A stretch of 24,000 nt of DNA, from contig DASWLD010000099.1 in the NCBI GenBank assembly GCA_036396275.1, positions 1-24,000 of the forward strand, written 5' to 3'. Positions 2,996 through 18,428 of the stretch are shown here, piece after piece. How positions within the stretch are numbered: position 1 is the stretch's first letter; each line of letters starts with the position of its first letter. Made by a program: the position numbers and the translations under genes. The notes under the pieces were generated by a model. That model ran no database searches, had not been told where the DNA came from, and saw only the letters and a program-made list of their open reading frames with translations. This stretch comes from Burkholderiales bacterium (lineage in GTDB: Bacteria > Pseudomonadota > Gammaproteobacteria > Acidiferrobacterales > Sulfurifustaceae).

Positions 2996-3026
2996 TTGAC
3001 CTGGAGTGAACTCCAAGTCTTAGGCT
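2996..3026 (+). promoter_or_regulatory. MerR-family-type promoter/operator upstream of the first ATPase
   Basis: TTGACC (2996-3001), 19-nt spacer, TAGGCT (3021-3026). The spacer carries the dyad ACCTGGAGT-GA-ACTCCAAGT (2999-3018, 8/9 symmetric). A 19-bp spacer with a centred dyad is the MerR-family hallmark. Confidence 0.65.
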
Positions 3027-3056: not shown

Positions 3057-5534
3057 ATGAGTATCCATCGCGGTTTAGATACCGCCCACAAAGCGTTTGC
3101 ACAAACCAGCGACGCCGCGACACCGACGGTCAAGCGCCAATACAAGATCGGCGGCATGGCTTGCTCGTTCTGCGTGGCAAGCATCTCCAAGGCGCTTGGG
3201 CGTTTGGCCGGGGTGCAGCGCGTGAATGTCAACCTCGCGCACGAAGAAGCGCTGGTCGAATTCAATCCGGCGCGGGTGACATCGCGCGAGATCGAGCGCA
3301 CCTTGCGCGATCTCGGCTACACACTGCGCGACCCGGATCGGTTGCGGGCGTTCGAGCAAGAAGCGGCGGAACTGGAGGAAGCGCGCGCCAATCTGTTGCT
3401 CGCCGGTGCGCATACGCTGGTCAGCTTGGGCGCGATGTCGCTCATGTGGTTGGAATGGATGCCGCCCCGAGGGATGGCGGCGATGTACTGGTTGATGCCG
3501 ATCCTCGCGCTCTCGGTCATGTTTGGACCCGGCTGGCACATTCTCGAAATGGCGTGGGCCAGCTTGCGCCGCGGCATCTTGAATCAACACGTGCTGCTCG
3601 AGTTCGGTGCGTTCGCCGGCTTGATCGGCGGCTTTCTCGGCTACGCGTTCGCGAGTTTTCCGCTGCCGGACTTTTTCGGCGTGACCGTCTTCGTCACGAC
3701 CTACCATATTCTGTCCGGCTACGTCTCGTTGCTGGTGCGCACGCGCGCCTCGCAGGCGGTGCGTAAGCTCCTGGCGCTGGTGCCACCGGTCGCGCATGTC
3801 GTGCGCGATGACGGTCGCGAGGAAGACGTGCCGCTCGCCCAGGTTCGCGTTGGGGATCGCGTGCGCGTGCGACCGGGCGAGTCGATACCGGTGGATGGCG
3901 CGGTGATCGACGGCGGCTCGGCCGTCAACGAAAGCCTGGTGACGGGCGAAGCGATTCCGGTGGAAAAGCAGCCGGGCGACGACGTGATCGGCGGCTCGAT
4001 CAACCAGGTGGGCACGCTGCTGATACGCGTCACGAAAGTCGGCGAGGAAAGTTTTCTGAGCCAGGTCGTGCGCCAGGTCGAAGAGGCGCGCGCGCTCAAG
4101 CCCTCGATCCTGATTCTGGTGGATCGTATTCTGCAAGTGTACGTGCCGGCGGTGCTGTCGATTGCCGCCGCCGCGTTTCTCTTTTGGTCGCTTGGTACTT
4201 GGCTGCTTGTCGGCGCGCCGGACTGGACGCGCGCGCTGTTCGCCGCACTCGCGGTGCTGGTGATGGGTTACCCGTGCGCGCTCGGCATGGCGACGCCGCT
4301 CGCCATGATCCGCGGTGGCGGGCTGGCGGCCGAACGCGGCATCTTGATGCGATCGGCCGAGGCGTTTCAGGCGCTCAAGGATGTGCGCACGATCGTGCTC
4401 GACAAGACCGGCACGCTCACGCAAGGCAAACCCGCGGTGGTGCGGATCGTCGTGCTCGATGGCCGCGGCGAGGACGACCTCTTGCGTCTCGCCGCTTCGA
4501 TCGAAAGCGCCTCGGAACATCCGCTCGCGCGCGCGGTCGTGGCGGAGGCCGCGGCGCGCGGATTGACCTTACTCAAGGCCGATGCGTTTCAATCCGAAAC
4601 CGGACGCGGCGTACGTGCACGCATCGGCGGTCGGTTGTGCCTCGTCGGCAATCCACGCTTCATCGAAACCGAGGGCGTCGATCTCTCTCACGCGCACACA
4701 ACCGTGGCCGCGCTGCAAGCGACCGGTAATACCGTTATCGGCGTCGCCGTAGACGACACGCTCGCCGCACTGATCGCCATCGCCGACCCGCTCAAGCCCG
4801 ACGCCGAGGAAACCATTGCGCGGCTGCGCGCGGCGGGACTCCAACCGGTGATGTTGACCGGCGATCACGCGCGCACCGCACGAACGATCGCGGCCAAGCT
4901 CGGCATCGACGACTACCACGCTGACGTACTGCCCGGGCAAAAAGCCGAAACCGTGCGCGCGCTGCAACGCGACGGCACGCGCGTCGCCATGGTCGGCGAC
5001 GGCATCAACGACGCGCCGGCGCTGATGCAAGCCGACGTCGGCATCGCCATCGGCGCCGGCACCGATATCGCCATCGAAGCGGCGGACGTGGTGTTGATCG
5101 GGACGCGCCTACGCGGCGTAGTCGATGCGTACCACATCGGCAGGGCGTCGTATCGCAAGACGGTGCAGAACCTCGCGGCTGCCTTCGCCTTCAACGGCAT
5201 CGGCGTGCCGCTCGCCGCGACCGGCGCCGTGCATCCGGTGTGGGCCATGATCGCGATGGCCGCGAGCGTCAGCACGGTACTCGCAAATTCCTTCGGCGGG
5301 CGGTTGTTGCCGCGGCGACACGGACCGCGCGCCGAGGCGACGTTCAACATCGCCAATATGCATTGTAAGCAGTGCGTCACGACCATCGGCGACGCGGTGC
5401 GTGCTCTGGACGGCGTCGAGCGCTTCAGCGGGGACGTGCCGCGCCGGCGGGTGTCGGTGGCGTATCGCACCGACCGGATCGATCCGGCCACGATTCGCGC
5501 GGCGATACAGGCACGGGACTATGAAGTCGAGTAA
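3057..5534 (+). CDS. P1B-type heavy-metal-translocating ATPase, atypical (TM4 YPC; N- and C-terminal HMA domains)
   Basis: ORF 3027..5534. ATG 3057 is preferred because the TTG at 3027 abuts the -10 box. Motifs: N-terminal [41 protein letters not shown]4 reads VMGYPCALGMATP, TM5 AFAFNGIGVP, TM6 MAASVSTV. C-terminal HMA-like domain NMHCKQC. Confidence 0.93.
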   Translation: MSIHRGLDTAHKAFAQTSDAATPTVKRQYKIGGMACSFCVASISKALGRLAGVQRVNVNLAHEEALVEFNPARVTSREIERTLRDLGYTLRDPDRLRAFEQEAAELEEARANLLLAGAHTLVSLGAMSLMWLEWMPPRGMAAMYWLMPILALSVMFGPGWHILEMAWASLRRGILNQHVLLEFGAFAGLIGGFLGYAFASFPLPDFFGVTVFVTTYHILSGYVSLLVRTRASQAVRKLLALVPPVAHVVRDDGREEDVPLAQVRVGDRVRVRPGESIPVDGAVIDGGSAVNESLVTGEAIPVEKQPGDDVIGGSINQVGTLLIRVTKVGEESFLSQVVRQVEEARALKPSILILVDRILQVYVPAVLSIAAAAFLFWSLGTWLLVGAPDWTRALFAALAVLVMGYPCALGMATPLAMIRGGGLAAERGILMRSAEAFQALKDVRTIVLDKTGTLTQGKPAVVRIVVLDGRGEDDLLRLAASIESASEHPLARAVVAEAAARGLTLLKADAFQSETGRGVRARIGGRLCLVGNPRFIETEGVDLSHAHTTVAALQATGNTVIGVAVDDTLAALIAIADPLKPDAEETIARLRAAGLQPVMLTGDHARTARTIAAKLGIDDYHADVLPGQKAETVRALQRDGTRVAMVGDGINDAPALMQADVGIAIGAGTDIAIEAADVVLIGTRLRGVVDAYHIGRASYRKTVQNLAAAFAFNGIGVPLAATGAVHPVWAMIAMAASVSTVLANSFGGRLLPRRHGPRAEATFNIANMHCKQCVTTIGDAVRALDGVERFSGDVPRRRVSVAYRTDRIDPATIRAAIQARDYEVE

Positions 5535-6110: not shown

Positions 6111-6389
6111 ATGACTTCCATGCGTATTAACGTCGAAGTGTTCTCATCGCCCGGATGCAGCCGCTGCCAAGCCGCACGCGAGGAATTGCAGACGATCGTC
6201 GCGCAGCTCGGCCACGATCGCGTCGTATGGCGCGAGATCAACGTCGTCGACGAACTCGATTACGCCGTGCGCCTGGGCGTGCTGTCGACCCCGGCGATCG
6301 CGATCAACGGCGAGCTTCGGTTTCGGGCGCTGCCATCGGCGAAGAAACTACGCCGCGTGCTCGAAGAAATCCTCGAATCGTCCGATTAA
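6111..6389 (+). CDS. Small thioredoxin-fold protein (glutaredoxin-like/Thioredoxin_3 type), cytoplasmic
   Basis: 92 aa with no signal peptide. Active site SPGCSRCQ near the N-terminus and a cis-Pro region LSTPAIAING. An alternative start exists at ATG 6120. Confidence 0.8.
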   Translation: MTSMRINVEVFSSPGCSRCQAAREELQTIVAQLGHDRVVWREINVVDELDYAVRLGVLSTPAIAINGELRFRALPSAKKLRRVLEEILESSD

Positions 6390-6397
6390 CGTAAACT

Positions 6398-7090
6398 ATG
6401 GACCTTGAAACACTGCGCCAAGCATTGAGCCAACCGAGCCTCGCGGCGATCGGCGTCGGCTTTCTTGCCGGTTTCGTCTTCAGCTTCAACACCGTCGCGA
6501 TCGCCTCGATCCCGGTCACGCTCGCCTATGTCACCAAGGCGCGCGAACCGCGGCGCGCGGTTTGGCTCGGCGGTGCGTTCATCCTCGGACTGCTCGTGAC
6601 ACACGTCGTGCTCGGCGTCGCCGCGGCGCTCGGGGGCGACTGGGTGACGAACGTCATGGGCCGCGGCTGGGACCTCGTGCTCGGTCCGATTCTGATTTTT
6701 CTCGGACTCCTGTGGCCGGGGTGGATCAAGATTCGGCTACCGTGGTTCGCGCTGCGCGGGCAAGTCGTGTCCGGCGCTTGGGGCGCGTTCCTTCTGGCGA
6801 TTCCGTTCTCGATCGCGATCTGCCCGTTCTGCACGCCGGCGCTGCTCATCATGCTGACCGTGGCGGCCGGCATCGCGTCCGTACCGTTCGGCTTCGCGCT
6901 GCTGCTCGCCTTCGGCCTGGGACGCGCGGTGCCGATCGCACTTGGCGCCGCGAGCGTCGGCTGGCTTGAGTCGTTCAAGGTGTTGACGCGCTGGCAAAAG
7001 ACGTTCGAAATCGCCGGCGCGCTGTTACTTATCGCGAGCGGGATGTATCTCATTAGCGACTACTACGCGCCGATGGTCGGGCCGCAATGA
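6398..7090 (+). CDS. DsbD/CcdA-family transmembrane protein, non-canonical cysteines (CPFC in one helix)
   Basis: 230 aa, polytopic. Aligns with the in-window CcdA (17151), but the TM1 Cys position is Val (FSFNTVAIASIP) and the TM4 region reads IAICPFCTPALL. Confidence 0.85.
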   Translation: MDLETLRQALSQPSLAAIGVGFLAGFVFSFNTVAIASIPVTLAYVTKAREPRRAVWLGGAFILGLLVTHVVLGVAAALGGDWVTNVMGRGWDLVLGPILIFLGLLWPGWIKIRLPWFALRGQVVSGAWGAFLLAIPFSIAICPFCTPALLIMLTVAAGIASVPFGFALLLAFGLGRAVPIALGAASVGWLESFKVLTRWQKTFEIAGALLLIASGMYLISDYYAPMVGPQ

Positions 7091-7123: not shown

Positions 7124-7561
7124 ATGAGCGCATACCGCATCGGCCAGGTGACCGCCGCACTCGGATTGAGCGCGGACACGCTACGCTACTACGAGAAAAT
7201 CGGCCTGTTGCCGCGAGTGTCCCGCGCCGGCTCCGGCGTGCGCGTTTACGATGACAACGACCTGTCGCGGTTGCGTTTCATTCAGCGCGCGCAAAAGATG
7301 GATTTCTCGCTCACGGAAATCGGAATGCTGTTGCAAATGCGCGTCGCGCCGCAACGCGCACGGCAAAACGTGCGCGCCCTGGCGGCAAGGAAACTCGCCG
7401 AAATTGAAAGCCGCCTCAAGGATCTGACGCAACTGCGCCGCGAACTCAAGCTGCTGATCGATCTGTGTGCCGGGCTCAAGGGTGGATGCCCCATTATTCG
7501 ACGGATAAACGGCTCGCAATCCCATGGAACAAACGCGGGTCGCGCGCGGGCGGCAAGATAA
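7124..7561 (+). CDS. MerR-family regulator, CueR-like (monovalent-metal type)
   Basis: 145 aa. HTH YRIGQVTAALGLSADTLRYYEKIGLL, a dimerisation helix, and the metal loop DLCAGLKGGCPII (C-x6-C). No Cys at the position of MerR/ZntR Cys79. Confidence 0.9.
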   Translation: MSAYRIGQVTAALGLSADTLRYYEKIGLLPRVSRAGSGVRVYDDNDLSRLRFIQRAQKMDFSLTEIGMLLQMRVAPQRARQNVRALAARKLAEIESRLKDLTQLRRELKLLIDLCAGLKGGCPIIRRINGSQSHGTNAGRARAAR

Positions 7562-7591: not shown

Positions 7592-7621
7592 TTGTCGCTC
7601 GCAGGGATTGGCGGCTACAAT
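7592..7621 (+). promoter_or_regulatory. Possible sigma70-type promoter (TTGTCG-18 nt-TACAAT)
   Basis: Hexamers at 7592-7597 and 7616-7621, downstream of the regulator gene and upstream of the next + strand genes. Sequence match only. Confidence 0.25.
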
Positions 7622-8032
7622 TCACGACATGAGCGCTGGACGCGAGATTTTCTCTTGAATTGGCTGCGGGCACGCCGGCGTTACATCGTCACCATCGCCG
7701 CACTCGCGATAGTGTCGTTGGCGATGGTTCGCTACGCATGTCCATGGCCGCTCGACGTATCCGACGCGTCGGCCGCCGTGGCGCAAGCGCCCGCGTCGCC
7801 GATGTCCGCAAGTCAGCCCTGCGGCCATGAGAACTGCACGTACACCGACAGCAACCATGCGGCGCCCGATCAAACGCTGCTGACGATATTATTCGCGCCG
7901 TTGTGGGTCGCGGTGTTTTTCTTCGCGGCGGCCGCCATCCCGCTCGCGGCAATGGCGTCATGGCGCGCGCGTACCTTCCCGCGGCTTCCCGGCTATCCCC
8001 CCATCCTCGAGTTCTATCGCCTGCGTATTTGA
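7592..8032 (+). CDS. Small hypothetical Cys/His-containing membrane protein (start uncertain)
   Basis: ORF with GC-rich third positions and two hydrophobic helices. Contains ACPWP and CGHENC, with C-terminus PRLPGYPPILEFYRLRI. The TTG 7592 start has no RBS and overlaps the putative promoter. In-frame alternatives are TTG 7655 and ATG 7724. Confidence 0.35.
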   Translation: MSLAGIGGYNSRHERWTRDFLLNWLRARRRYIVTIAALAIVSLAMVRYACPWPLDVSDASAAVAQAPASPMSASQPCGHENCTYTDSNHAAPDQTLLTILFAPLWVAVFFFAAAAIPLAAMASWRARTFPRLPGYPPILEFYRLRI

Positions 8033-8080
8033 AACCCCCGGTTTGACGTTTCTTTCGATCTGTCAAAACGGAGGTTCCCT

Positions 8081-8791
8081 GTGGTTGTCGCATTTCCTTA
8101 CATGCGTCGCGCGCCCATTGAGGTAGCGCGGTCGCGGTTGCTCCTCGTCGTCGGCCTTGCGCTGGCAGTGTCGGCGCCGCCGCTCGCGGCACATTCGCTG
8201 AAGGACGTGGAGTCCGATCTACATCGCGACGAGCACTACGCGCAGTTCGTCGACATGCCGGCACCGGAATTTCGCCTGATCGATCTCGCCGGCAAGCCGG
8301 CCAGCCTCGGCGATCTCAGGGGGAAAGTCGTCGTGCTGAATTTCATCTACGCGCGCTGCACCGACGTCTGTCCGCTGCACATGAACCTAATTGCCCGCTT
8401 GCAGTCCATGGTTAACGCCGCTCACATGAGCGAACAAGTGCGATTCATCACGATCGCGACCGATACCGAAGACGCGAAAGCCACACGCAAGATCATGGCC
8501 ACCTATGCCAAGACCTACCGTCTCGATACGCGCAACTGGCGGTTCCTGTATCGTGCCGATGCCGCGCGGGCGGACACGACGCAGCGCGTGGCTGAAACCT
8601 ACGGGCTTAAGTTCACCGTCGCCGGCGCCGGTGTGCAGATGCACGGGGTGGTCACCCACGTCATCGACCAGACCGGGCAACTGCGGGCGCGTTTTCACGG
8701 ATTGAAGTTCGAGCCGGTGCACTTGGTGACGTACGTCAGCGCGCTGGTCAAGGACGATCACGGCATGGACTCGGCGAGGCGTGGATCATGA
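8081..8791 (+). CDS. SCO1/SenC-family copper chaperone / thiol-disulfide oxidoreductase
   Basis: GTG 8081 with GGAGG 6 nt upstream. Signal/anchor sequence, CTDVCP (CxxxC) and a downstream His (VVTHVIDQTG). Confidence 0.9.
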   Translation: MVVAFPYMRRAPIEVARSRLLLVVGLALAVSAPPLAAHSLKDVESDLHRDEHYAQFVDMPAPEFRLIDLAGKPASLGDLRGKVVVLNFIYARCTDVCPLHMNLIARLQSMVNAAHMSEQVRFITIATDTEDAKATRKIMATYAKTYRLDTRNWRFLYRADAARADTTQRVAETYGLKFTVAGAGVQMHGVVTHVIDQTGQLRARFHGLKFEPVHLVTYVSALVKDDHGMDSARRGS

Positions 8792-9645
8792 CCGCCGCGT
8801 CGCGATATAAAGTCAGTACTTTCTGGATCGTTATTGCCGCCGCGAGCCTGCTGGCAAATGTCGCGGCGCGCGCGGCGGAACCGATCGTCGCGCTCGCTTC
8901 CGGCGGCGACGTTGACACCGTTTTTATCGCGCGGGCGAATGCACTTTATCGCGGCGATGACGCCGGCCGACGGTGGACGCGCGTCGCGCTGCCCGCCGAG
9001 ATTCGAGACGGCGCTATCGCCACGCTCGCGGCGCCGGCCAAGCGCCAGGGCGTGCTGTATCTGGCCGGTCCCGGGTTCGGCGTGTGGCACAGCGCCGATG
9101 GCGGCCGGAGCTGGGTGGCGCGCAACAACGGGCTGCCGAGCCTCGACGTCGCCGCACTCGCCGCGCATGCGGATCAACCCGATACGCTCTATACCTATGT
9201 CCCGGGCAAGGGCGTCTTCCGCAGCGAAGACGCGGGCGCGCGCTGGAAGTGGATCGACAACGGACCGCGCGGTCCCATCGGACAGTTCATCCATTCGAAC
9301 ATGCCGGGGAGCATGCAGACCGGCTGGCTGTTTGCCGCAACGCCGAAAGGCGTCAGTCGCTCGATGGATTGTTTTTGTCTCTGGCAGGACGCGGGCGGGC
9401 TGGTCGCGGCGGTGACCACTGTCGCCTACGATCCGCGCGAGCCGAAGCATGTCTATGCGGCGACGGCCAAGGGACTGTTGCTCAGCACCGATGGCGGAGA
9501 GGAGTGGACGCTGCTGAGCGCACCCGCTTCTCGCATTACCGCGCTGGCGGTATCGCCGACCGGCACGGTGTTCCTCGGCACCGCCGACGGCGGGTTGTAT
9601 CGCAGTAACGACCAAGCGAAATCCTGGGAGCGGGTCGATGCGTAG
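8788..9645 (+). CDS. BNR/Asp-box repeat beta-propeller protein, secreted
   Basis: ATGA overlap with SCO1. Signal peptide. Asp-boxes SADGGRSW, SEDAGARW, STDGGEEW, SNDQAKSW and GDDAGRRW. Contains an MDCFCLW motif. Confidence 0.85.
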   Translation: MTAASRYKVSTFWIVIAAASLLANVAARAAEPIVALASGGDVDTVFIARANALYRGDDAGRRWTRVALPAEIRDGAIATLAAPAKRQGVLYLAGPGFGVWHSADGGRSWVARNNGLPSLDVAALAAHADQPDTLYTYVPGKGVFRSEDAGARWKWIDNGPRGPIGQFIHSNMPGSMQTGWLFAATPKGVSRSMDCFCLWQDAGGLVAAVTTVAYDPREPKHVYAATAKGLLLSTDGGEEWTLLSAPASRITALAVSPTGTVFLGTADGGLYRSNDQAKSWERVDA

Positions 9646-10096
9646 TCTTGTATCAGTAGCCTGCATCGTACTGGCGGCCGGCGTGGCACCGGCGCATGCC
9701 GGTAACGATACGCCGGTTGCGCCAAACTCCGAGCAGGCCGCATCCGGGCGCGCCATCTATCAAACGTATTGCGCGTCCTGCCACGGCGCGAACGGCGAAG
9801 GGGCGCCCGCGTGGCGCGAGCGCGACGCGCGCGGCGAACTTCCACCGCCGCCGCACGATGCGCAAGGGCACGCCTGGCGGCATTCGGACGCAATGCTCTC
9901 TCGCATGATCCTGCATGGCTGGCGCGACCCGTTCAACAAGACCGAGCGCGTGACCATGCCGGCCTTTACCGGAACGATCGCGCCGCAAGAAGTTCGCTTT
10001 GTTATCGCCTATCTCAAGACGCTGTGGACGCCCGAACAGCGGCAGTTCCAACGGGAAGAGAGTCAACGGCAATCGTTCGCACCCGCGGCGCATTAG
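9638..10096 (+). CDS. Periplasmic c-type cytochrome (monohaem)
   Basis: 8-nt overlap with the previous gene. Signal peptide, CASCH haem motif, distal TMPAF. Confidence 0.88.
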   Translation: MRSLVSVACIVLAAGVAPAHAGNDTPVAPNSEQAASGRAIYQTYCASCHGANGEGAPAWRERDARGELPPPPHDAQGHAWRHSDAMLSRMILHGWRDPFNKTERVTMPAFTGTIAPQEVRFVIAYLKTLWTPEQRQFQREESQRQSFAPAAH

Positions 10097-10129
10097 CAGA
10101 AGAGGATTGTCCAACGAGGTACTGACATT

Positions 10130-11095
10130 ATGAAACCGGAAACCCAGAATAAGTTGGCCATCACGGTCGTGGTCGCCGCGGTCGTCGTGGCGGCCGCCGC
10201 GCTCATCATGGTGATGCGCATGTCATATCCACCCGATGAGGCGCGCGTCATGCGGTTGATCGAGCAGCAGCTGGCGAAACAAGACGGCTCGGCGGCCGTG
10301 CCCGCACTCACTGAAGCGCGCGTGGTGCGACTGATCGAGGAGCGCCTGCCGGCGATGGAATCCGCCGGCAAGGGAATAAGCGAAGCCCGGTTGAAGAAAC
10401 TCATCGATGAACGGCTGGCGGGGAAGAGCGCCTTGCCGGACAAGGAATTCGAAGCGCGTGTGGAAAAAGGCATCGTCGCCTTCATCGAGAAGCAGCGGCG
10501 CGCGGAACAGGAGCGGCCGAACCAACTCGCGCGCAACCTACCGCGACCGAACAAAAGCGATCATATTTACGGGAATCCCACCGCCCCGGTGACGCTCATC
10601 GAGTACTCCGACTTCGAGTGCCCGTTCTGCAAGCGCTTTCACGACAGCGTCAAGCAAGTCGTCGACGCGTCCAAGGGCCAAGTGAAGTGGGTGTATCGCC
10701 ACTTCCCGATCGAGCAGCTTCATCCGGTCAAGGCGCGCAAGGAAGCGGTCGCCGCCGAATGCGCCGGCGAGCTCGGCGGCCACGATGCCTTCTGGAAGTT
10801 CGCCGATCGGTTTTTCGAGTTGACGCCGTCGAACAATCGCACCGACGTCGACACCGTGCTGCCGCAGATCGCCCGAGAAATTGGGCTTGACGAGAAGCAG
10901 TTCGCCTCGTGCGTCGCCAGCGGCAGGCACGACCAGCGCATCGACAAGGACATCCGCGACGCCCAAACTTCCGGCGCGAACGGCACGCCGTGGAGCGTGA
11001 TCGTGTCGAAGGGCGGCAAAACCTACGTGCTCTCGGGCGCGCAGCCGCAGGCGGCGATCAAGCAGCTCACCGAATTGGCGCTACAGGAGAAGTAG
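10130..11095 (+). CDS. DsbA-family thiol:disulfide oxidoreductase, membrane-anchored, with repeat-containing linker
   Basis: 321 aa. N-terminal TM, then EARVMRLIEQQL / EARVVRLIEERL / EARLKKLIDERL / FEARVEKGIVAFIEKQ repeats, then a thioredoxin-fold domain with the active site FECPFCKRF. Confidence 0.9.
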   Translation: MKPETQNKLAITVVVAAVVVAAAALIMVMRMSYPPDEARVMRLIEQQLAKQDGSAAVPALTEARVVRLIEERLPAMESAGKGISEARLKKLIDERLAGKSALPDKEFEARVEKGIVAFIEKQRRAEQERPNQLARNLPRPNKSDHIYGNPTAPVTLIEYSDFECPFCKRFHDSVKQVVDASKGQVKWVYRHFPIEQLHPVKARKEAVAAECAGELGGHDAFWKFADRFFELTPSNNRTDVDTVLPQIAREIGLDEKQFASCVASGRHDQRIDKDIRDAQTSGANGTPWSVIVSKGGKTYVLSGAQPQAAIKQLTELALQEK

Positions 11096-11098
11096 ATC

Positions 11099-11755
11099 GT
11101 GCGCAGCTACGTCAGCGACCTGTACACCGCATTCGCCCGGGTGTTTACCCGCGCCGGGTACATCGTACTGGCGAGCGCGCTGGCGCTGGCGGCGTTTTTG
11201 TTCGCGGTGTGGTTTCCGAACTTCGCTCTGATAGGCGAGGTGTTCGGCACGCCGGACGTGGCGCTCATTGCCAAACTCCGATTCGCTCTGAGCCTACTCG
11301 GCGGCATTGCCACCAATTTTGATCTGCTGTCGGCGGGATACACCGTCGCGATCGCCGTGCTCTTCGGTATCAACACGGCCATGATCGCGTACTTGCTCAC
11401 GCAAAAACGTGTTGTCGCCGCCGGGCAGAACCTTGTCATCGGCTCGGGCGGTATGGCAACCGGCGCACTCGGTATCGGCTGCGCCGCCTGTGGCTCGCTC
11501 GTTTTCACCACGGTGCTGTCCTCGTTCGGCGCCGCGAGTGCCGTCGCTCTGCTGCCGTGGCAAGGCGAGGAGTTCGGAATTCTCGGTGCCGCGCTGCTTC
11601 TGGTATCGGTGTCGCTGATGAGCCGCAAGATCGCCGCGCCGGGCAGTTGTGAAACGCCGGCACGCGGCGTGGGGCGCACCCGCGATCGCATTGCAACACC
11701 AGTAAACGTAAAACGACTCACATTCACTCAACTCGATGAGGTAACGAAACGATGA
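11099..11755 (+). CDS. Polytopic membrane protein with intramembrane GCAAC motif (MerC-like signature)
   Basis: GTG 11099, 3 nt after the DsbA stop, with AGGAGA upstream. Several TM helices. GALGIGCAACGSLVFTTVLSSFGAASAV resembles MerC GCAACFPALASFGAA. Confidence 0.7.
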   Translation: MRSYVSDLYTAFARVFTRAGYIVLASALALAAFLFAVWFPNFALIGEVFGTPDVALIAKLRFALSLLGGIATNFDLLSAGYTVAIAVLFGINTAMIAYLLTQKRVVAAGQNLVIGSGGMATGALGIGCAACGSLVFTTVLSSFGAASAVALLPWQGEEFGILGAALLLVSVSLMSRKIAAPGSCETPARGVGRTRDRIATPVNVKRLTFTQLDEVTKR

Positions 11756-12186
11756 ACCGGCTGAGAACAACCATCCTGATTTTCGCGCTGGGCCTGTCGC
11801 TGCCCGCGTTCGCCGGCGGCATTCCGGCAAAGCTCTACAAGAATCCGAGCTGCGGCTGCTGCGGGGAGTACACGAAATATTTGGAGTCGCACGGATACCA
11901 AGTCGAGGTCATTCCCACGCGCGACATGACCGCGATCAAGAAGACAAACAAAGTGCCGCAGCCGCTCGAAGCCTGTCACACAACGTTGATCAGCGGGTAT
12001 GTGTTCGAGGGCCACGTTCCGGTGGAGACCATCAACCGCGTGCTTAAGGAGCACCCGATCATTCGTGGCGTGTCGGTGCCGGGCATGCCGGCCGGATCGC
12101 CGGGAATGACCGGAGTGAAACGGGGTCCGCTGGACGTGTACTACCTCAGCAACTCGCCCGAGCCGAAAGTGTACGAGTCGCGCTGA
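11752..12186 (+). CDS. copG: CopG-family (DUF411) periplasmic copper-binding protein
   Basis: ATGA overlap with the previous gene. Signal peptide, SCGCCGEY (CxCC), ACHTT and GMPAGSPGM, the DUF411/CopG signatures. Confidence 0.9.
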   Translation: MNRLRTTILIFALGLSLPAFAGGIPAKLYKNPSCGCCGEYTKYLESHGYQVEVIPTRDMTAIKKTNKVPQPLEACHTTLISGYVFEGHVPVETINRVLKEHPIIRGVSVPGMPAGSPGMTGVKRGPLDVYYLSNSPEPKVYESR

Positions 12187-12218
12187 CGCATCGGCGTCAC
12201 CATCACGCGGAGGATCAA

Positions 12219-12482
12219 ATGAACGCGGAGACGGAAACGGCTGTAGTACCCGCCGGGCGGCCCTGGATAAACGGACGCCGGCGTGGGTGGTGGCTCGCGG
12301 GCATTGCAATTCTGGCCGGCGTCGCCCTGGGCAGGGAATGGCTGGCGGCGATCGGGGCGTTGCCGATTTTACTTTCGCTCCTGCCGTGCGCGGCGATGTG
12401 CGCGCTCGGCTTGTGCATGAACCACCAGACCGGCGGCGCGTGCGATCAATCGAAGACGGAAACCACGGAGAAGCCGACATGA
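12219..12482 (+). CDS. Small two-TM Cys-rich protein, DUF2933-like
   Basis: GGAGGA RBS 5 nt upstream, 87 aa. GALPILLSLLPCAAMCALGLCMNH aligns with the in-window DUF2933 protein (GALPFILLALCPLLHIFGHGGHG). Confidence 0.55.
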   Translation: MNAETETAVVPAGRPWINGRRRGWWLAGIAILAGVALGREWLAAIGALPILLSLLPCAAMCALGLCMNHQTGGACDQSKTETTEKPT

Positions 12483-13168
12483 TGTGCAACAAACAGATTC
12501 TCACCTTGGTAGTGGCACTGTTTCTGGTGGCGCCCGCGTTCGGCGCGGGCGATGCCGCGCGTGGGGCAAAAGTTTTCGGCACGTGCATCGCCTGTCATTC
12601 GCTGCGAGTCGGCGAACACCTCACCGGACCGAGTCTGGCTGGCATGGTTGGCCGCCGAGCGGGAACGACCGATGGATTTGCCCGCTACTCGGAAGCGTTG
12701 CGCAAAACCGACGTGATCTGGGACGAGAAGTCGCTCGATGCGTGGATCGCCGACCCGCAGAAGTTCATCCCCGGCAACTTGATGACGTTTCGCGGCCTGC
12801 GCGACGCCGGGCAACGCGCGGATCTCATCGCATTCCTCAAGAATCCGAAGCCGGCGGCGGAGTCCGCGGGCGGTGGCATGGGCGCCATGATGGCGTCGCC
12901 GCGGCTGGAGAGCTTGCGCGCCGTCGAACCGCAAGCGCGCGTGACGGCGATTCGCTACTGCAAGGACAGCTACTTTGTCACGCTCGCCACCGGCAAGACG
13001 TTCCCGTTCTGGGAAGTCAATCTGCGCTTCAAAACGAACGGCACGCCCGACGGCCCGCCGGCCGGCAAGCCCGTGATCTTACGCGGCGGCATGCAGGGCG
13101 ACCGCGCCTCGATTGTGTTCGCGAGTCCCGATGAGATCGGGAAGTTCGTCAAAAAGCGCTGCGAATGA
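12479..13168 (+). CDS. Class I c-type cytochrome fused to an uncharacterised C-terminal domain
   Basis: ATG 12479 (ATGA overlap). The track ORF from 12287 is an upstream extension. Signal peptide, CIACH, LMTF, a Met-rich linker GGGMGAMMASP, then a ~90-aa domain with two Cys (RYC...KRCE). Confidence 0.85.
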   Translation: MMCNKQILTLVVALFLVAPAFGAGDAARGAKVFGTCIACHSLRVGEHLTGPSLAGMVGRRAGTTDGFARYSEALRKTDVIWDEKSLDAWIADPQKFIPGNLMTFRGLRDAGQRADLIAFLKNPKPAAESAGGGMGAMMASPRLESLRAVEPQARVTAIRYCKDSYFVTLATGKTFPFWEVNLRFKTNGTPDGPPAGKPVILRGGMQGDRASIVFASPDEIGKFVKKRCE

Positions 13169-13752
13169 ACAAACCGGTGCAACCCTTGGTGCCGGATCAT
13201 TTGCTACCCGCGACACACAGCCGCGCGTGGCGCGGCTACGTCGTCGCACTGGTCGTGTTTGGCGCAATCGGGATTCTCCTTGCCTACGGTCTCGGTCTCG
13301 ATCCGAAGCGCATTCCCTCGCCGCTAATCGGCAGACCGGTGCCAACGTTCGAGTTGCCGCCCGTGCAAGGCCGCACGCTCGGCCTGTCGAGCGAAAACCT
13401 CACGGGCGAGGTGTCATTGGTAAACGTCTTTGCTTCCTGGTGTGCGGCGTGCTTGGACGAGCACCCGTTATTCATGCGTCTCAAGCGCGACAACGTCGTG
13501 CCCATCCATGGGCTCAACTACAAGGACGCGCCCGATGACGCCGCCGCCTGGCTCGCGCGCCACGGCGATCCCTATACCCGCACCGGCGCCGACCGCGACG
13601 GGCGCGTCGGGATCGACTGGGGCGTCTACGGCGTGCCGGAAACCTTCGTCATCGACCGCGACAGCCGCATCGCGTACAAGTTCATCGGGCCGCTCAGCGA
13701 TAAAGACGTAAACGAAACATTGCTCCCGTTGCTGGAGAAGTTGCGCCAATGA
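13165..13752 (+). CDS. dsbE: DsbE/CcmG-type periplasmic thiol:disulfide oxidoreductase
   Basis: ATGA overlap. N-terminal anchor, WCAAC active site, GVYGVPETFVID. Confidence 0.9.
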   Translation: MNKPVQPLVPDHLLPATHSRAWRGYVVALVVFGAIGILLAYGLGLDPKRIPSPLIGRPVPTFELPPVQGRTLGLSSENLTGEVSLVNVFASWCAACLDEHPLFMRLKRDNVVPIHGLNYKDAPDDAAAWLARHGDPYTRTGADRDGRVGIDWGVYGVPETFVIDRDSRIAYKFIGPLSDKDVNETLLPLLEKLRQ

Positions 13753-14363
13753 GTCTTCGAACGGCGACTTTCATCCGCCGCGCTGCCGCTGTCGCGCTCG
13801 GCTTGATCGCGGCGGTCGCGGTGGCGGTGGTCGCGTACCGCTATGCGACCGGGCAATCAGAAGGCGAGGGCGCCGGCGCCGATGCCACGATCAAGGTCGG
13901 TGGCCGGGACTTCATTCGATGGGACACGCCGCGCACGCTGCCGGCCGTCGTCTTTGCCGACGAGAATGGCCGTGAGGTCACGCTCGAGCAATTCCGCGGC
14001 CGCGTGGTGCTGCTAAACGTTTGGGCCACGTGGTGCGTGCCGTGCCGCAAGGAGATGCCGACGCTCGACCGATTGCAGGCGAAGCTCGGCGGTCCGGACT
14101 TCGAGGTCGTCGCGCTCTCGATCGATCAGGACGGAATCGCCGCCGTGCGCAAGTTCTATCAAGAGGTCGGCATCAAGCATCTGCGGATTTACAACGACCC
14201 GACGGCCGATGCGACTGCGCGCCTCAATATTCTCGGCATACCGGCGACGTTGCTCGTCGATCGCGCGGGCCGCGAGGTTGGGCGCGCCTTGGGGCCGGCG
14301 GAGTGGGATGCGCCGGACGTGATCGAACTCATTCGGGCGCATTGGAACCCGCCGTCAAAATGA
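13749..14363 (+). CDS. tlpA: TlpA-family thiol:disulfide oxidoreductase
   Basis: ATGA overlap. TM anchor, VWATWCVPCRKEMP, GIPATLLVD. Confidence 0.9.
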   Translation: MSLRTATFIRRAAAVALGLIAAVAVAVVAYRYATGQSEGEGAGADATIKVGGRDFIRWDTPRTLPAVVFADENGREVTLEQFRGRVVLLNVWATWCVPCRKEMPTLDRLQAKLGGPDFEVVALSIDQDGIAAVRKFYQEVGIKHLRIYNDPTADATARLNILGIPATLLVDRAGREVGRALGPAEWDAPDVIELIRAHWNPPSK

Positions 14364-14418: not shown

Positions 14419-15972
14419 ATGTTGACACGCCGAACCGCGTTAAGGGTGCTAACCGCCGGGGTGGGAATCCTTGCGGCACCGTTGCCGCTGCGGCGCGCGT
14501 TTGCCGGGCGTGAACCCGATTTGGTGCTGAGGCTCACCGCCGCGCCCGACGACGTGCAACTCCGGCCGGGACCCAGGACGCGAGTGCTGCGTTTCATGGG
14601 TGAGGTGTTGCGTGGCCGCACCGACGCCGTTAAACCCGCACCGGGTTACCTTGGACCGACGATTGAATTGCGCCGCGGCGAGCGCGTGCGCATTCAGTTC
14701 CGAAATCGCGCCTTCGGTCCGAGCATCGTCCACTGGCACGGCATGATCGTCCCCGACGTCGCCGACGGACATCCGCGTCACGCCGTCGGACCCGGCGGTG
14801 ATTACCTATACGAATTTACGGTGCAAAATCCGGCGGGGACTTATCTTTATCATCCCCATCCGCACGGACTCACCGGCGCGCAAGTGTACTACGGCTTGGC
14901 CGGGCTGCTCATCGTGCGCGACTCGGAGGAAACCGTGGGCGGACTGCCGGCCGGCGAGCGCGAGCTTGCGCTCGTGATCCAGGACCGGCGGGTCGGGCGC
15001 GACAATCAGTTCAGCTTCAAACGCATGATGATGGACGACATGAACGGCGTGCTCGGCGACACGGCGTTGGTCAATGGCAGACCCGACGCCGCCTTCACGG
15101 TGGTGCCGCGCACTTACCGGTTGCGGCTGGCCAATGTCTCGAACGCGCGCATTTACAAGCTCGCCTGGTCGGACGGCCGGCCGATGCGAGTCATTGCCAC
15201 CGATAACGGTCTTTTTTCCTCCGCCGAGGGCATTCAGACCCGGCCGTACGTGGTGGTCGCGCCGTTCCAACGTCTCGAACTGATCGAGGACTTCGGCGCG
15301 CGGCGCTCGAAAACGGAGATTGCGCTGATGAGCCGGGCGTTCTCGTCGCTATCCATGGATACCATGATGGGCGGCATGATGGGTAACGGCGGCGGAGGAA
15401 TGATGGGTGGAGGTGGAATGATGGGCGGCGGCATGATGGGTGGGATGATGCGGGGCATGATGGGCGCGGACCAAGGCGAGGAGCTTGTAGTGGCGCGCTT
15501 TACCGTCGCATCCGGGACGCGCGTTCGCGACGCGGATGTGCGTCTGCCCGATCCCATACCGTTTCCGGAGAAAACCGACGCCGAGTTATATACGGAGCTT
15601 GCGTTTCGCCATATGCGCGGCTTCCTGAACGGTCGCCGCTTCAACATGCTGGCGGTCGCCGACGAGGAGCGGCTGCCTCTTGGCCGCGCCGCCGTGTGGA
15701 CGTTCGCGAACGACGGGCCGGGAATGGCCATGCCGCACCCCATGCACATTCACGGCGTGCGTTTCCGGATTCTCGAGCGCAGCGGCGGCGCGGCGGCGGG
15801 CGATCTGCGCGAGGGCATCGTCGACGCCGGCTACAAGGACATGTTTCTGATCTTCCCCGGCGAGCGTGTGCGCGTCGGCCTCGTGCCGACCGAGCCCGGC
15901 ATGTTCATGTACCACTGTCACAACCTCGAGCACGAGGACGCCGGCATGATGCGCAACGTTGTCGTGAGTTGA
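14419..15972 (+). CDS. Tat-exported three-domain multicopper oxidase with Met/Gly-rich insert
   Basis: AAGGAG RBS. Twin-arginine leader MLTRRTALRVL. Copper motifs HWHG, HPHPHG, HPMHIHG, HCHNLEHEDAGMM. Insert MDTMMGGMMGNGGGGMMGGGGMMGGGMMGGMMRGMMG. Confidence 0.93.
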   Translation: MLTRRTALRVLTAGVGILAAPLPLRRAFAGREPDLVLRLTAAPDDVQLRPGPRTRVLRFMGEVLRGRTDAVKPAPGYLGPTIELRRGERVRIQFRNRAFGPSIVHWHGMIVPDVADGHPRHAVGPGGDYLYEFTVQNPAGTYLYHPHPHGLTGAQVYYGLAGLLIVRDSEETVGGLPAGERELALVIQDRRVGRDNQFSFKRMMMDDMNGVLGDTALVNGRPDAAFTVVPRTYRLRLANVSNARIYKLAWSDGRPMRVIATDNGLFSSAEGIQTRPYVVVAPFQRLELIEDFGARRSKTEIALMSRAFSSLSMDTMMGGMMGNGGGGMMGGGGMMGGGMMGGMMRGMMGADQGEELVVARFTVASGTRVRDADVRLPDPIPFPEKTDAELYTELAFRHMRGFLNGRRFNMLAVADEERLPLGRAAVWTFANDGPGMAMPHPMHIHGVRFRILERSGGAAAGDLREGIVDAGYKDMFLIFPGERVRVGLVPTEPGMFMYHCHNLEHEDAGMMRNVVVS

Positions 15973-16114: not shown

Positions 16115-16426
16115 ATGAAAGAGTCGACGCTACTCATACAATCCGCGGTCGCAAGCCTGCTCGTTCTAGGAATGACGGCGGGCGCCGGCTCCGCCTTCGC
16201 TGCAAAAGGCGGAATCGATCGTTGCGCCGGGATTGCCAAAGCCGGTAAGAACGATTGCGGGACGGCGACGGCATCGTGCGCCGGCACGTCCAAGGTGGAC
16301 GGCGACAAAAACGCCTGGATTGCCGTACCGAAGGGGACGTGCGAAAAGATCGTCGGCGGCCAATTGGCCGACGCCGGTGCAATCGCGAAGCACATGAAGG
16401 AAATGGAAATGATGAAAAAGAAGTGA
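16115..16426 (+). CDS. DUF2282-type secreted Cys-containing peptide (bufferin BufA1-like precursor) with Met/Lys-rich tail
   Basis: AAGGAG RBS, 103 aa. Sec signal ending AFA. Core [47 protein letters not shown] (Cys37, 48, 55, 76) matches the DUF2282 pattern [10 protein letters not shown]...C.G....D...W..VP.G.C. Tail [13 protein letters not shown]. Confidence 0.8.
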
Positions 16427-16505: not shown

Positions 16506-17108
16506 GTGAATCGACATGTTCTTGCGGCAGTAATGGCGAGCCTTCTCGGCGTCCTGCTTCCTGCCTCTGAGTCCGCGGCGCAGGACGTGGCCGCCAAGCG
16601 CGGCTTTCCTTTCGCTAATCACGGCAACGGCTTCGCGCTGTCGCCGAAGGTTTTGCTCGCGGCGGACGGCGTTTCCGACGGCGGCTTGCGTAAGCAATCG
16701 TCCGCGAGCGTCGATGGCGCGGACGAATTATTGCCGCCGGACCGGGCTTTCACCGTTTCCATTTCCGCCAAGGACGCCGACAACTTGGTGGCGGTGTTCA
16801 CTCCCGCGGAAGGTTATTTCCTGTATCGCGACAAGTTCATATTTCGCGTACAACAACCGCCGGGTATCGAGGTCGCGAACGTTGCGATCCCTCGCGGCGA
16901 AATCAAGGACGATCCGATCTTCGGGAAAACCGAGGTCTTCCATCGGCCGGTGCGGGTACGGGTTCAACTGAAGAGAACGAATTCTTCCGCGCGCAGCTTG
17001 ATGCTCTACGTCAGGTACCAGGGATGCAACGAACCGCTGGCGGTTTGTTATATCCCGATCGAAAAAACTTTGCGCATCACGCTACCGCCGGCGGCTCGCG
17101 GCGGCTGA
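16506..17108 (+). CDS. Stand-alone DsbD alpha (N-terminal periplasmic) domain protein
   Basis: GTG start with GGAG 7 nt upstream. Signal peptide. LLPPDRAF...GYFLYRDK...YQGCNEPLAVCYIP parallels E. coli DsbD-alpha (LPVDQAF...GYYLYR...YQGCADAGFCYPP). Confidence 0.85.
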   Translation: MNRHVLAAVMASLLGVLLPASESAAQDVAAKRGFPFANHGNGFALSPKVLLAADGVSDGGLRKQSSASVDGADELLPPDRAFTVSISAKDADNLVAVFTPAEGYFLYRDKFIFRVQQPPGIEVANVAIPRGEIKDDPIFGKTEVFHRPVRVRVQLKRTNSSARSLMLYVRYQGCNEPLAVCYIPIEKTLRITLPPAARGG

Positions 17109-17150: not shown

Positions 17151-17891
17151 ATGTCTGAAATCGCGAACATCGGGTTGTTGACCGCCTTCCTGGCCGGTCT
17201 AATCTCCTTCGTCTCGCCGTGCGTGCTGCCGCTGGTGCCGGGTTATATTTCCTTTATCGCCGGGCGTTCGCTCGATGAGCTGGACGCGCCGACGCATTTC
17301 ACGCGGCTCACCCTGTTCGGGCAAGCGGCATTGTTCGTGCTCGGGTTCTCGACCGTGTTCATCGCGCTCGGCGCGAGCGCCACGGCGCTCGGGCGGCTGC
17401 TGCTCACGTACAAACAGGAAGCGAATCTCATCGGCGGGATAATCGTCGTGGTGTTCGGACTATTCATGACCGGGTTGATCAACCCGCGCTGGCTGCATCT
17501 CGATCTGCGTTTTGTACATCGGATCGAATTGCGCGGCGGGCCGGTGGCGGCGTATGTACTCGGGCTCGCGTTCGCGTTCGGCTGGACGCCATGCATCGGC
17601 CCGATTCTCGGCGCCATTCTCACCGTCAGCGCCTCGACCGCCTCGATCCAAGGCGGCATCGTCTTGCTGTCGGTTTACTCGCTCGGTTTAGGCGTACCCT
17701 TCGTGTTGACCGCGGTGTTTCTCGAACGCTTCCTGGTTCATCAGCCGCGCCTGCGACGTTGGAGTCGACCGCTGCACCTTGCCACCGGCATCATACTTAT
17801 CTTCGCAGGCATCGCGATCGCCACCGGTCAGCTCACGAAACTCTCTTATTGGCTTCTCGAGTTATTCCCGGCGCTGGGCCGTATCGGTTGA
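17151..17891 (+). CDS. ccdA: CcdA / DsbD-beta transmembrane electron transporter
   Basis: 246 aa. Canonical SPCVLPLVPGY (TM1) and WTPCIGPILG (TM4). Confidence 0.92.
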   Translation: MSEIANIGLLTAFLAGLISFVSPCVLPLVPGYISFIAGRSLDELDAPTHFTRLTLFGQAALFVLGFSTVFIALGASATALGRLLLTYKQEANLIGGIIVVVFGLFMTGLINPRWLHLDLRFVHRIELRGGPVAAYVLGLAFAFGWTPCIGPILGAILTVSASTASIQGGIVLLSVYSLGLGVPFVLTAVFLERFLVHQPRLRRWSRPLHLATGIILIFAGIAIATGQLTKLSYWLLELFPALGRIG

Positions 17892-18026
17892 CGTTCCCCG
17901 ACACATTTGTCGGTCTCGGCTGGCGTTAATGCCGCTCCATGAACTGTGGCGCTGCGTTGGAACCCGAGCCTTTTGCGTATTGATCTACATCAACACATAG
18001 CGGCGCGCGTCGGGTATTGTTCACAT

Positions 18027-18428
18027 ATGACCTTAAGTGTGAACCGGATGCAAGACAACAGATTCGCACGAGCGCTGGCGTTCGTCGCTGTTGCGGCGTT
18101 CGTTCTTCTTCTGGGTCCTTACTGCGACATCGTGAGTTCCGCGCGAGCCGAGGCGCCAAGCAACGCAAGCCATCACGCGACCGACGCGCAGGACCACGGA
18201 AAATCCTCGCCGGCCGATCTATGTCCGTCGCTCGATCACACGCCGGCTGTTCCGCCCGATGCCGTTTCTTCGCCGCTGGTTAACGCGACACCGGCGTTTC
18301 CGCCGGTGGGTGCACCTGGCCTCGTCGTGCGCATCCCGAACAGCCGAGGACGAATTACACCGCGAGCGACGCCACCGCCAGGTCAACGCGTGCCGCTCTA
18401 TCTGCGCTACGCCCATCTTCTGACCTAG
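18027..18428 (+). CDS. Small secreted/anchored His-rich hypothetical protein (start uncertain)
   Basis: ATG 18027 or 18048 within ORF 17946..18428. Signal-like ALAFVAVAAFVLLLG, SHHATDAQDHG, CPSLDH, Pro-rich. C-terminus PRATPPPGQRVPLYLRYAHLLT resembles the C-terminus of ORF 7592. Confidence 0.4.
   Translation: MTLSVNRMQDNRFARALAFVAVAAFVLLLGPYCDIVSSARAEAPSNASHHATDAQDHGKSSPADLCPSLDHTPAVPPDAVSSPLVNATPAFPPVGAPGLVVRIPNSRGRITPRATPPPGQRVPLYLRYAHLLT

Follow-up and report, generated by a model that had tools for sequence, protein, structure and literature searches.

Ten coupled envelope genes for copper and thiol redox chemistry probably form part of a longer copper-stress unit ending in a multicopper oxidase on a proteobacterial metal-resistance island

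How bacterial multicopper oxidases (MCOs) acquire their four copper atoms, and how Cu(I) is detoxified when oxygen is low, are open questions of copper homeostasis, and several described gene clusters bear on them. In Pseudomonas putida the mnxG operon encodes an MCO together with a beta-propeller protein, SCO1 and a protein with a cytochrome c domain; mcoA has an SCO1 gene conserved beside it, and cytochrome c maturation genes as well as a TlpA-like gene affect MCO-dependent manganese oxidation, which needs ccm (PMC11409713). Scs is a copper-linked, Dsb-like redox system of Salmonella, Proteus and Caulobacter (PMC10907172). In the cutFOG operon of Rhodobacter capsulatus, CopG is encoded with a periplasmic MCO whose copper is supplied by CopA and which requires small accessory proteins with Cys motifs (PMC8456105). 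TlpA of Bradyrhizobium reduces ScoI before its metallation, on the way to CuA assembly of CoxB (PMC6669012), and the CopRS regulon of Corynebacterium glutamicum contains the copper-induced operon cg3286-cg3289, whose genes encode CopO (an MCO), a thioredoxin similar to TlpA, a secreted product and a protein of unknown function (PMC3140484). In the periplasm, toxic copper interferes with the assembly of c-type cytochromes (PMC4600104). Here we describe ten genes at positions 8081-14363 of a 24,000-nucleotide stretch, hereafter the window (contig DASWLD010000099.1 of assembly GCA_036396275.1, from a Burkholderiales bacterium placed by GTDB in the Sulfurifustaceae). We hold with moderate confidence that these genes are part of a long copper-stress unit which ends in a CueO-type MCO and lies on a mobile island of an uncultured proteobacterium; our confidence in each single step is lower.

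The open reading frame (ORF) listing and a direct reading of the junctions place all ten genes on the + strand, with the coordinates, junctions and gap sizes of the original prediction, which had been made from the DNA letters and an ORF list. Successive genes are connected by five ATGA overlaps (8788, 11752, 12479, 13165 and 13749), an 8-nt overlap (9638-9645), a 3-nt gap (11096-11098) and two further gaps of 33 and 32 nt; the five 4-nt overlaps and the 8-nt overlap indicate translational coupling. Independent gene calls on three ENA metagenome contigs bearing the sequence gave an identical gene set. Every one of the ten products has a signal peptide or membrane anchor at its N-terminus or is polytopic, and the MCO encoded downstream carries a twin-arginine translocation (Tat) signal, so the system is extracytoplasmic. 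The proposal of a coupled envelope operon within a metal-resistance island agrees with the presence of merT/merR, IS110 and two copper P-type ATPases on that island. A megablast search of PLSDB with 8081-14363 returned a single match, a 122-bp fragment of the TlpA gene, and no annotated relative.

Families were assigned by Pfam and NCBIfam scans, Pfam being relaxed to E≤10 for the orphan proteins, and the active-site motifs were confirmed in all motif-bearing products of the ten. The row opens with a SCO1/SenC copper chaperone (8081-8791), which matches positions 2-82 of the 134 of PF02630 (48.7 bits, cutoff 22.8). Its CX3CP site reads CTDVCP at residue 93, and its distal histidine, His188 (MHG), is aligned to the IHG of the solved Sco 4hde. 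Its putative role would be to bind copper and deliver it to a cuproenzyme; there is no haem-copper oxidase client nearby. SCO1 is followed by a secreted beta-propeller of the BNR/Sortilin type (8788-9645), by cytc1, a secreted mono-haem class I cytochrome c with CASCH (9638-10096), both recognized by Pfam/NCBIfam, and by a membrane-anchored, DsbA-like thioredoxin-fold protein of the BdbD/MdbA type, with CPFC and a repeat-rich N-terminal stalk (10130-11095). The fifth gene, memb (11099-11755), encodes a 218-aa protein with four transmembrane (TM) helices, a CAAC motif and no family match. CopG (DUF411; 11752-12186; 82.5 bits, cutoff 27) has CGCC at residue 34, MPAGSPGM at residue 112 and an N-terminal signal ending in AFA-G. 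The next gene (12219-12482) encodes an 87-aa, Cys-rich protein with two TM helices, the second of which contains an invariant P-C-x3-C-x4-C motif. It had been called DUF2933-like, a label left unsupported by the absence of any match in NCBIfam or, at E≤10, in Pfam; all other domain calls of the original prediction were verified by Pfam, NCBIfam or motifs. The last three genes encode cytc2 (12479-13168), a cytochrome c2-like haem domain (CIACH) joined by a linker to a C-terminal domain, the thiol:disulfide oxidoreductase DsbE/CcmG (13165-13752; TIGR00385, 157.9 bits, cutoff 123.15; WCAAC at residue 92, GVYGVPET at residue 153), and a membrane-anchored thioredoxin with WCVPC (13749-14363). The latter scores 172.4 bits against the rhizobial equivalog model NF047696, below its cutoff of 230, and has both CVPC and the N-terminal anchor; it is a TlpA-like protein and not the rhizobial TlpA equivalog. 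No other ccm gene accompanies DsbE among the window ORFs scanned, and haem attachment to the cytochromes must rely on the Ccm machinery of the host. Two c-type cytochromes, four thioredoxin-fold proteins, CopG and two membrane proteins with intramembrane cysteines are thus encoded here, as had been proposed.

The row does not stop at TlpA. Only 55 nt further, with no terminator-like site in between, begins the gene of a Tat-exported, 517-aa CueO-type MCO (14419-15972, + strand; Cu-oxidase_3 and Cu-oxidase_2). The protein contains all four histidine motifs for copper ligation (HWH, HPH, HIH and HCH), the sequence RRTAL and a Met/Gly-rich insert, with six MMG repeats in all; its top model is the NCBIfam CueO (239 bits, below the equivalog cutoff of 525). 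It is probably the eleventh gene and the functional centre of the cluster. The earlier statement that no oxidase subunit is present overlooked this MCO directly downstream; haem-copper oxidase subunits were not seen in the annotated contexts.

Upstream of SCO1, the genes from CopA to a 125-aa protein are likewise all on the + strand and separated by short gaps. The first gene of the unit is probably copA (3057-5534), which encodes a Cu(I) P1B ATPase with two HMA domains (TIGR01511, 477 bits). The same row includes a DUF7482 gene, a small Trx_3 thioredoxin (6111-6389) and a CcdA-like DsbD_TM membrane protein (6398-7090), both assigned by Pfam, which together (6111-7090) probably import reductant. 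A CueR-like regulator of the MerR family (7124-7561) has a C-terminal C-x6-C-P-I-I loop and scores 107 bits with TIGR02044 (CueR) and 111 bits with PRK09514 (the ZntR model), both below cutoff. The 125-aa protein (7655-8032), which has two TM helices and no family, shows no similarity to the genes found at the same position in relatives. Just upstream of copA lies a promoter of the MerR/CueR type (2996-3026, + strand), composed of TTGACC, a 19-nt spacer with the perfect dyad ACCTGGAGT/ACTCCAAGT, and TAGGCT. It is the sole MerR-type promoter in the window, where 0 matches are expected by chance, and a similar site (1419-1442) heads the co-oriented gene row of a related locus, L004. The sequence of this site and of the regulator suggests that the unit is probably driven by the CueR-like protein.

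A promoter and terminator scan found no terminator-like site in any intergenic gap of the row; the predicted terminator-like sites, 21 in total (11.6 ± 2.8 expected), fall inside coding sequence, and the four promoter-like sites (3.0 ± 1.7 expected) include a weak sigma-70-like one at 7592-7621. Given the same-strand flanking genes, the lone MerR-type promoter and the lack of a terminator in the gaps, the ten genes are most simply the middle section of a copper-stress unit of about 13-15 kb, presumably copied as a single transcript. No Rfam family was matched between 2700 and 18600. Between the 125-aa gene and SCO1 there is an inverted repeat with 15-nt arms (8033-8076), the 3' arm of which holds the Shine-Dalgarno sequence of SCO1. 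As a hairpin over this ribosome-binding site it folds with -18.6 kcal/mol (z = -1.56), which is not significant.

Downstream of the MCO, the + strand carries a DUF2282/BufA1-like peptide (16115-16426), DsbD_N (16506-17108) and DsbD_TM (17151-17891), all recognized by Pfam; the same three genes also follow the MCO in L004. The bufferin-like DUF2282/BufA1 gene is followed by the split DsbD instead of an MNIO partner, and neither MNIO (DUF692) nor DUF2063 was matched among the window ORFs scanned. The split DsbD probably feeds TlpA, DsbE and SCO1. The ten genes had been regarded as a self-contained module, a description that does not fit, since Trx_3, both DsbD_TM proteins, DsbD_N, the regulator and the copper pump are all encoded outside 8081-14363.

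To follow the neighbourhood in other genomes we used two independent anchors, memb and cytc2. Among relatives anchored on memb (52-79% identity) most of the genes are retained, with the order unchanged in some loci and rearranged in others. L004 and L005 read MerR, an unknown gene, Cox11, SCO1, DsbA, memb, CopG, the small Cys-rich protein, cytc2, DsbE, TlpA, MCO, DsbD_TM, DUF2282 and DsbD_N, and L006-L008 read BNR, Cox11, SCO1, DsbA, memb, cytc2, DsbE, TlpA and MCO. In L047, from a metagenome-assembled genome (MAG) of the Acidiferrobacteraceae, the order is SCO1, BNR, cytc1, DsbA, memb, CopG, TlpA, the small protein and DsbD_TM, with a second SCO1-like gene, DsbE, MCO and cytc2 further downstream; it alone among these relatives keeps BNR and cytc1 between SCO1 and DsbA. 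The loci anchored on cytc2 show the same families in other combinations: SCO1, BNR, cytc2, DsbE, TlpA, MCO, a homologue of the small protein, DsbA and DsbD_TM in L090; MerR, MCO, CopG, two small genes, a full-length DsbD, a methyltransferase, cytc2, TlpA and SCO1 in L091 and L092; MCO, cytc2, CopG, a cytochrome c and SCO1 in L093; cytc2, DsbE, TlpA, DsbA, memb, the small protein, a Cys-rich protein, MCO, DsbD_N, SCO1 and BNR in L094; and BNR, a TlpA-like protein, a PCYCGC-domain protein, SCO1, cytc2 and MCO in L095. The sub-order cytc2, DsbE, TlpA, MCO is seen in the window and in L004, L006, L090, L131 and L162.

We searched 85 cytc2-anchored loci by tblastn with the window proteins (E≤1e-5) and counted neighbours in the 30 that have at least 6 kb of flank. 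The commonest neighbour of cytc2 is the MCO (19/30), followed by TlpA/DsbE (15/30), SCO1 (11/30), a Cu-type P-type ATPase (8/30), the BNR protein (7/30) and a second cytochrome c (6/30). Genes of these kinds number a few per genome, among thousands. The probability that they co-locate within 6 kb by chance is about 1% or less, as a rough estimate made without a matched control. The same families re-associate in differing orders even between lineages that share only 50-55% identity, which implies selection for co-location. As for the question whether gene order is conserved across genomes, the gene set recurs and its homologues are not randomly scattered, but the order varies; this is a recurrent but flexible neighbourhood with the MCO as its hub, not a fixed ten-gene operon.

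Nor is the cluster regularly adjacent to cytochrome oxidase genes. None of the haem-copper oxidase subunit genes COX1, COX2 or COX3 occurs in any Pfam-annotated context, and a six-frame scan that took in 176 sequences from related loci, 1.85 Mb altogether, and looked for the subunit I signatures GHPEVY and WAHHMF, with cbb3-type genes outside its reach, found neither signature. The same 1.85 Mb contains a single CuA-like motif (CNEYCGIGHDYM), at about position 1738 of L151, some 0.8 kb downstream of a cytc2 gene. L004 and L006 both encode the CuB chaperone Cox11/CtaG directly before SCO1 (7690-8241 in each), and neither locus has haem-copper oxidase genes in the vicinity. In the window, the interval from the CueR-like gene to SCO1 is occupied only by the non-conserved 125-aa gene.

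Two of the products belong to uncharacterized families. The first is memb, whose partner appears to be the DsbA-like protein: a DsbA-like gene lies immediately upstream of memb in 69 of 82 loci. The DsbA-like protein matches PF13462 (83.9 bits) and PF01323 (67.8 bits) and has its CPFC at residue 164. CPFC is the active site of the strongly oxidizing DsbL (PMC8405906). Its best matches among solved structures are 4n30, 3gyk, MdbA (4pwp), Wolbachia DsbA1 (3f4r) and BdbD (3eu3), and ScsC is absent from them. A HMMER scan of 1.84 billion representatives assigned 1,346 clusters at 50% identity to the memb family, 743 of them at E≤1e-10, and nearly all homologues are about 180 aa long. All 80 loci obtained from a scan of genome collections belong to MAGs, of Betaproteobacteria/Burkholderiales and of many Patescibacteria (Saccharibacteria, Parcubacteria and others). 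Cu-type P-type ATPases are encoded near memb in 31 loci and CsoR-type repressors in 14, besides MCOs and cupredoxins; CsoR and cupredoxin genes likewise occur in patescibacterial loci that contain the DsbA-memb pair.

Among 138 representatives of memb, C128 and C131 are conserved in 100%, C184 in 95%, and P153, G156 and E158 in about 99%; TM3 contains the invariant motif G-x-G-C-A-x-C-G. From the distribution of lysine and arginine, four TM helices are predicted, with both termini inside the cell; the CxxC would then fall within the outer half of TM3, and C184 would be cytoplasmic. A natural C-terminal fusion to an S-adenosylmethionine (SAM)-dependent methyltransferase (P0337) agrees with a cytoplasmic C-terminus. 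Homology searches did not place the protein. As a partner of the DsbB or VKOR family it was rejected, with no Pfam match at E≤10, no NCBIfam match and only one, chance-level match in a profile search of the PDB; as a DsbD_TM/CcdA protein it was likewise rejected, with no Pfam match and an hhalign probability of 0.2% against the DsbD_TM of the window. Its layout, a Cys pair in a TM helix and a cytoplasmic Cys after the next helix, resembles that of MerT/MerF, and hhalign against MerT gave P = 0.037 with a 23-sequence profile and P = 0.098 with a 138-sequence profile against five MerT sequences, the probability staying below 2%. The AlphaFold2 model of memb is so poor (predicted local distance difference test, pLDDT, 62.6, and below 50 around the CxxC) that its Foldseek matches are meaningless. 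The DsbL-type CPFC and the oxidative structure matches (MdbA, BdbD, Wolbachia DsbA1) favour a DsbB-like role, and the pair is most likely an oxidative thiol relay that would substitute for DsbB/VKOR; a reductive, CcdA-like role and a MerT-like hand-off of metal are possible alternatives.

Two further gene families accompany the DsbA-memb pair. In 22 loci the gene after the pair encodes a protein of about 200 aa that is secreted, very rich in Cys (SCCSPM, GPCCC[KR]CWRW, DGCGG) and without a Pfam match. This protein, encoded in loci within the range L009-L079 and at 12341-12958 of L094, is found in Patescibacteria and on one proteobacterial contig, not in the window, and could be a substrate of the pair. 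The window does contain an overlapping pair of genes (19352-19774 and 19771-20208) without Pfam match, for a membrane protein with 'MISCC(A/T)HY' and a secreted protein with 'GDP-x-G-x-HHR'. Copies of these two genes also lie close to the DsbA-memb cassette in 11-12 further loci, some of them patescibacterial.

The second family is defined by the C-terminal half of cytc2. The haem domain is a mitochondrial-type cytochrome c (E = 1e-22 to solved cytochromes c) and is followed by a Gly/Met-rich linker and a beta-rich domain of about 80 aa (residues ~150-229), modelled with confidence (pLDDT 82-92). A 30-sequence alignment shows C161, the C-terminal C228, M205, FWExNLRFK and GDR to be invariant, and homologues of cytc2 occur in at least 569 metagenome loci. 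The C-terminal domain has no Pfam match at E≤10, and Foldseek with the whole model retrieved only cytochromes c. In one homologue, P0148 (347 aa), this domain is duplicated in tandem, which marks it as an independent module. With two Cys, a Met and a Met-rich linker beside a high-potential haem, we hypothesize that the Cys/Met domain and its linker form a candidate Cu(I) site with a role in electron transfer.

It is tempting to combine these components into an envelope system, under the control of CueR, that would oxidize Cu(I), metallate the MCO and Sco, and maintain thiols, a reading that we consider somewhat better than even. Under copper stress, the CueR-like regulator would activate the copA promoter, CopA would pump Cu(I) out, and the Tat-exported MCO would oxidize it to Cu(II) with O2. 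A second route for electrons, leading into the respiratory chain or to the MCO, could be provided by CopG and the two c-type cytochromes. SCO1, together with Cox11 in close relatives, may bind periplasmic copper as a chaperone or buffer for the apo-MCO. Trx_3, DsbD_TM and DsbD_N would feed TlpA and DsbE, which would keep the CX3CP site of SCO1 and the CXXCH sites of the apocytochromes reduced in a copper-oxidized periplasm. The DsbA-like protein and its 4-TM CxxC partner may form a separate thiol relay for disulfide formation or repair under copper stress.

Several points weigh against this reading. Order and membership vary, CopG, cytc1, BNR and the DsbA-memb pair each being dispensable somewhere, and such variation is as compatible with a loose collection of tools as with an integrated machine. 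The neighbour counts come from tblastn on short metagenome contigs, and cross-matches between thioredoxin-fold proteins make the labels TlpA, DsbE and SCO1 approximate. The distance from the MerR-type promoter to SCO1 is 5 kb, and promoters within the unit are possible. DsbE may merely mature the two cytochromes encoded on the island, and the roles suggested for memb and the C-terminal domain of cytc2 derive from motifs and neighbours alone. Delivery of copper from Sco to an MCO has been tested only in the negative: the housekeeping proteins SenC and PccA are dispensable for the activity of the MCO CutO in R. capsulatus (PMC8456105).

The variability just described would also be expected if the island had simply accumulated a mosaic of individually useful copper and redox genes, co-transcribed and functionally unlinked. 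Order and membership differ between loci, the DsbA-memb pair occurs without the rest of the set in most of its loci, cytc2 can stand alone right after a CusCBA-like pump (L089), and the island bears IS110 and a mer fragment. We nevertheless regard such a mosaic as unlikely, in view of the translational coupling and of the re-association of the same families in distant lineages; in addition, TlpA-Sco and DsbD-TlpA/CcmG are established redox pairs (PMC6669012, PMC10907172). At the other extreme, the genes could constitute an assembly operon for a haem-copper respiratory oxidase that came to lie on a metal island incidentally. Sco, TlpA and CcmG are classical factors of oxidase and cytochrome biogenesis (PMC6669012), and the Cox11 genes of L004 and L006 and the CuA-like motif of L151 point the same way. 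This is nonetheless highly improbable, because COX1/2/3 are missing from the annotated contexts and subunit I signatures from the 1.85 Mb, in a scan that did not extend to cbb3-type genes, whereas the constant neighbours are the MCO, copper ATPases, a CueR-like regulator and CopG.

The system might instead serve another thiophilic metal (Hg, Ag or Au), or the respiratory oxidation of Mn(II), Fe(II) or Cu(I) via the MCO and cytochromes c, and not copper detoxification. The mer genes adjoin the cluster in the window, L004 and L094, the layout of memb is MerT/MerF-like, the described operons closest in shape belong to Mn oxidases, whose activity needs ccm (PMC11409713), and L047 comes from an Acidiferrobacteraceae MAG. 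The regulator, however, has the CueR-type C-x6-C-P-I-I loop, the MCO, of 517 aa, resembles CueO and has a Met-rich insert, the window also encodes two Cu-type P1B ATPases and CopG, patescibacterial DsbA-memb loci carry CsoR and cupredoxin, and the hhalign comparison with MerT is not significant (P = 0.037-0.1). All this makes another metal or respiratory metal oxidation improbable, and copper stress is the function we prefer. A bolder form of the copper reading, which we put forward as doubtful, is that the two uncharacterized families are both new redox devices, a membrane thiol relay and a haem-linked cuprous oxidase. DsbA-memb may be a third kind of membrane thiol relay, unrelated to DsbB/VKOR and to DsbD, and may have been recruited into proteobacterial copper islands; cytc2 may draw electrons from periplasmic Cu(I) and deliver them to the respiratory chain or the MCO, a detoxification that would not depend on O2 at the MCO. 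The neighbourhood supplies concrete candidates, open to testing, both for how the MCO is metallated and for an electron outlet that does not need O2. Should memb prove to be a disulfide-generating or thiol/metal relay, it would represent a new type of membrane partner for the Dsb field and would help to explain the envelope thiol chemistry of Patescibacteria-type lineages that bear the pair.

The surroundings of the unit also deserve a short description. At 524-2927 the window carries, in this order, a fragment of mer with merT on the - strand and merR on the + strand, a transposase of the IS110 family (1706-2743, - strand) and two perfect short hairpins (2837-2857 and 2905-2927), which stand just before the copA promoter. 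This arrangement suggests that a mer module and the copper module were joined here by insertion. Further downstream, the island is extended by a relative of the CMD/AhpD-like 'YciW-related (seleno)protein' (18675-19259; 140 bits, below cutoff) and by a second copper P1B ATPase with N-terminal YHS and HMBD domains (20253-22832). SAM-dependent methyltransferases recur: UbiE-like ones lie beside cytc2 or the MCO in L091 (7390-8004) and L095 (10202-10819), and an ICMT/PEMT-like membrane methyltransferase (22927-23754) ends the window. Small secreted or membrane proteins rich in Cys and His, otherwise unrelated in appearance, have a similar C-terminal motif (R-P-L/V-x-L-Y-L-x-Y-x-x-L-L). They are encoded at 17946-18428 of the window, where the match to DUF2946 is very weak (E = 0.24), and at 7123-7506 of L004, 5970-6383 of L006 and 2024-2536 of L092.

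A search of the full-text literature, under the terms used, retrieved no description of the full combination or of the memb family, nor of the recurrent association of an MCO, a fused cytochrome c, Sco and TlpA/CcmG, with CopG and DsbA-memb as optional members. The original prediction that this is not a described operon is correct for the full combination and has to be qualified by the partial versions on record (PMC11409713, PMC8456105, PMC3140484, PMC10907172). The mnxG/mcoA genes of P. putida GB-1 resemble the window in bringing together an MCO, a propeller, SCO1 and a cytochrome c-domain protein. They differ in that they encode Mn oxidases, unlike the 517-aa CueO-like MCO with its Met-rich insert, have a YVTN propeller, lack CopG, DsbE, TlpA and DsbA-memb, and are chromosomal and not linked to CueR/CopA. 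Scs has functional analogues in the window: its DsbD-type importer of electrons, its protein like DsbA/DsbG and its TlpA-like protein anchored in the membrane. It is devoid of MCO, Sco, CopG and cytochromes, whereas the window has a split DsbD and a DsbA-like protein coupled to an unrelated 4-TM protein; the likeness would be an analogy of logic, not membership. The cutFOG operon has in common with the window CopG beside an MCO and the copper route via CopA, without Sco, TlpA, DsbE or DsbA, and no CutF homologue was identified in the window. The cop cluster of Cupriavidus metallidurans presumably also combines CopG with a cytochrome c-like protein, CopJ. A membrane-anchored TlpA (CVPC) and a Sco with CX3CP and His are common to the window and the Bradyrhizobium pathway, but the window contains no CoxB or other haem-copper oxidase target, and the likely client is the MCO or a copper buffer. 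The C. glutamicum operon cg3286-cg3289 comprises four genes of a Gram-positive bacterium, is governed by a two-component system and lacks Sco, cytochromes, CopG and DsbA-memb. Finally, as in DsbA-DsbB, MdbA-VKOR, BdbD-BdbC and MerP-MerT, a periplasmic CxxC gene of the window stands beside that of a small polytopic protein with Cys in or near the membrane. Unlike those partners, the 4-TM protein shows no significant match to a DsbB, VKOR, DsbD_TM or MerT model and combines one extracytoplasmic Cys pair with one cytoplasmic Cys. With every recognizable component drawn from a known family and partial arrangements already described, the system is not categorically new.

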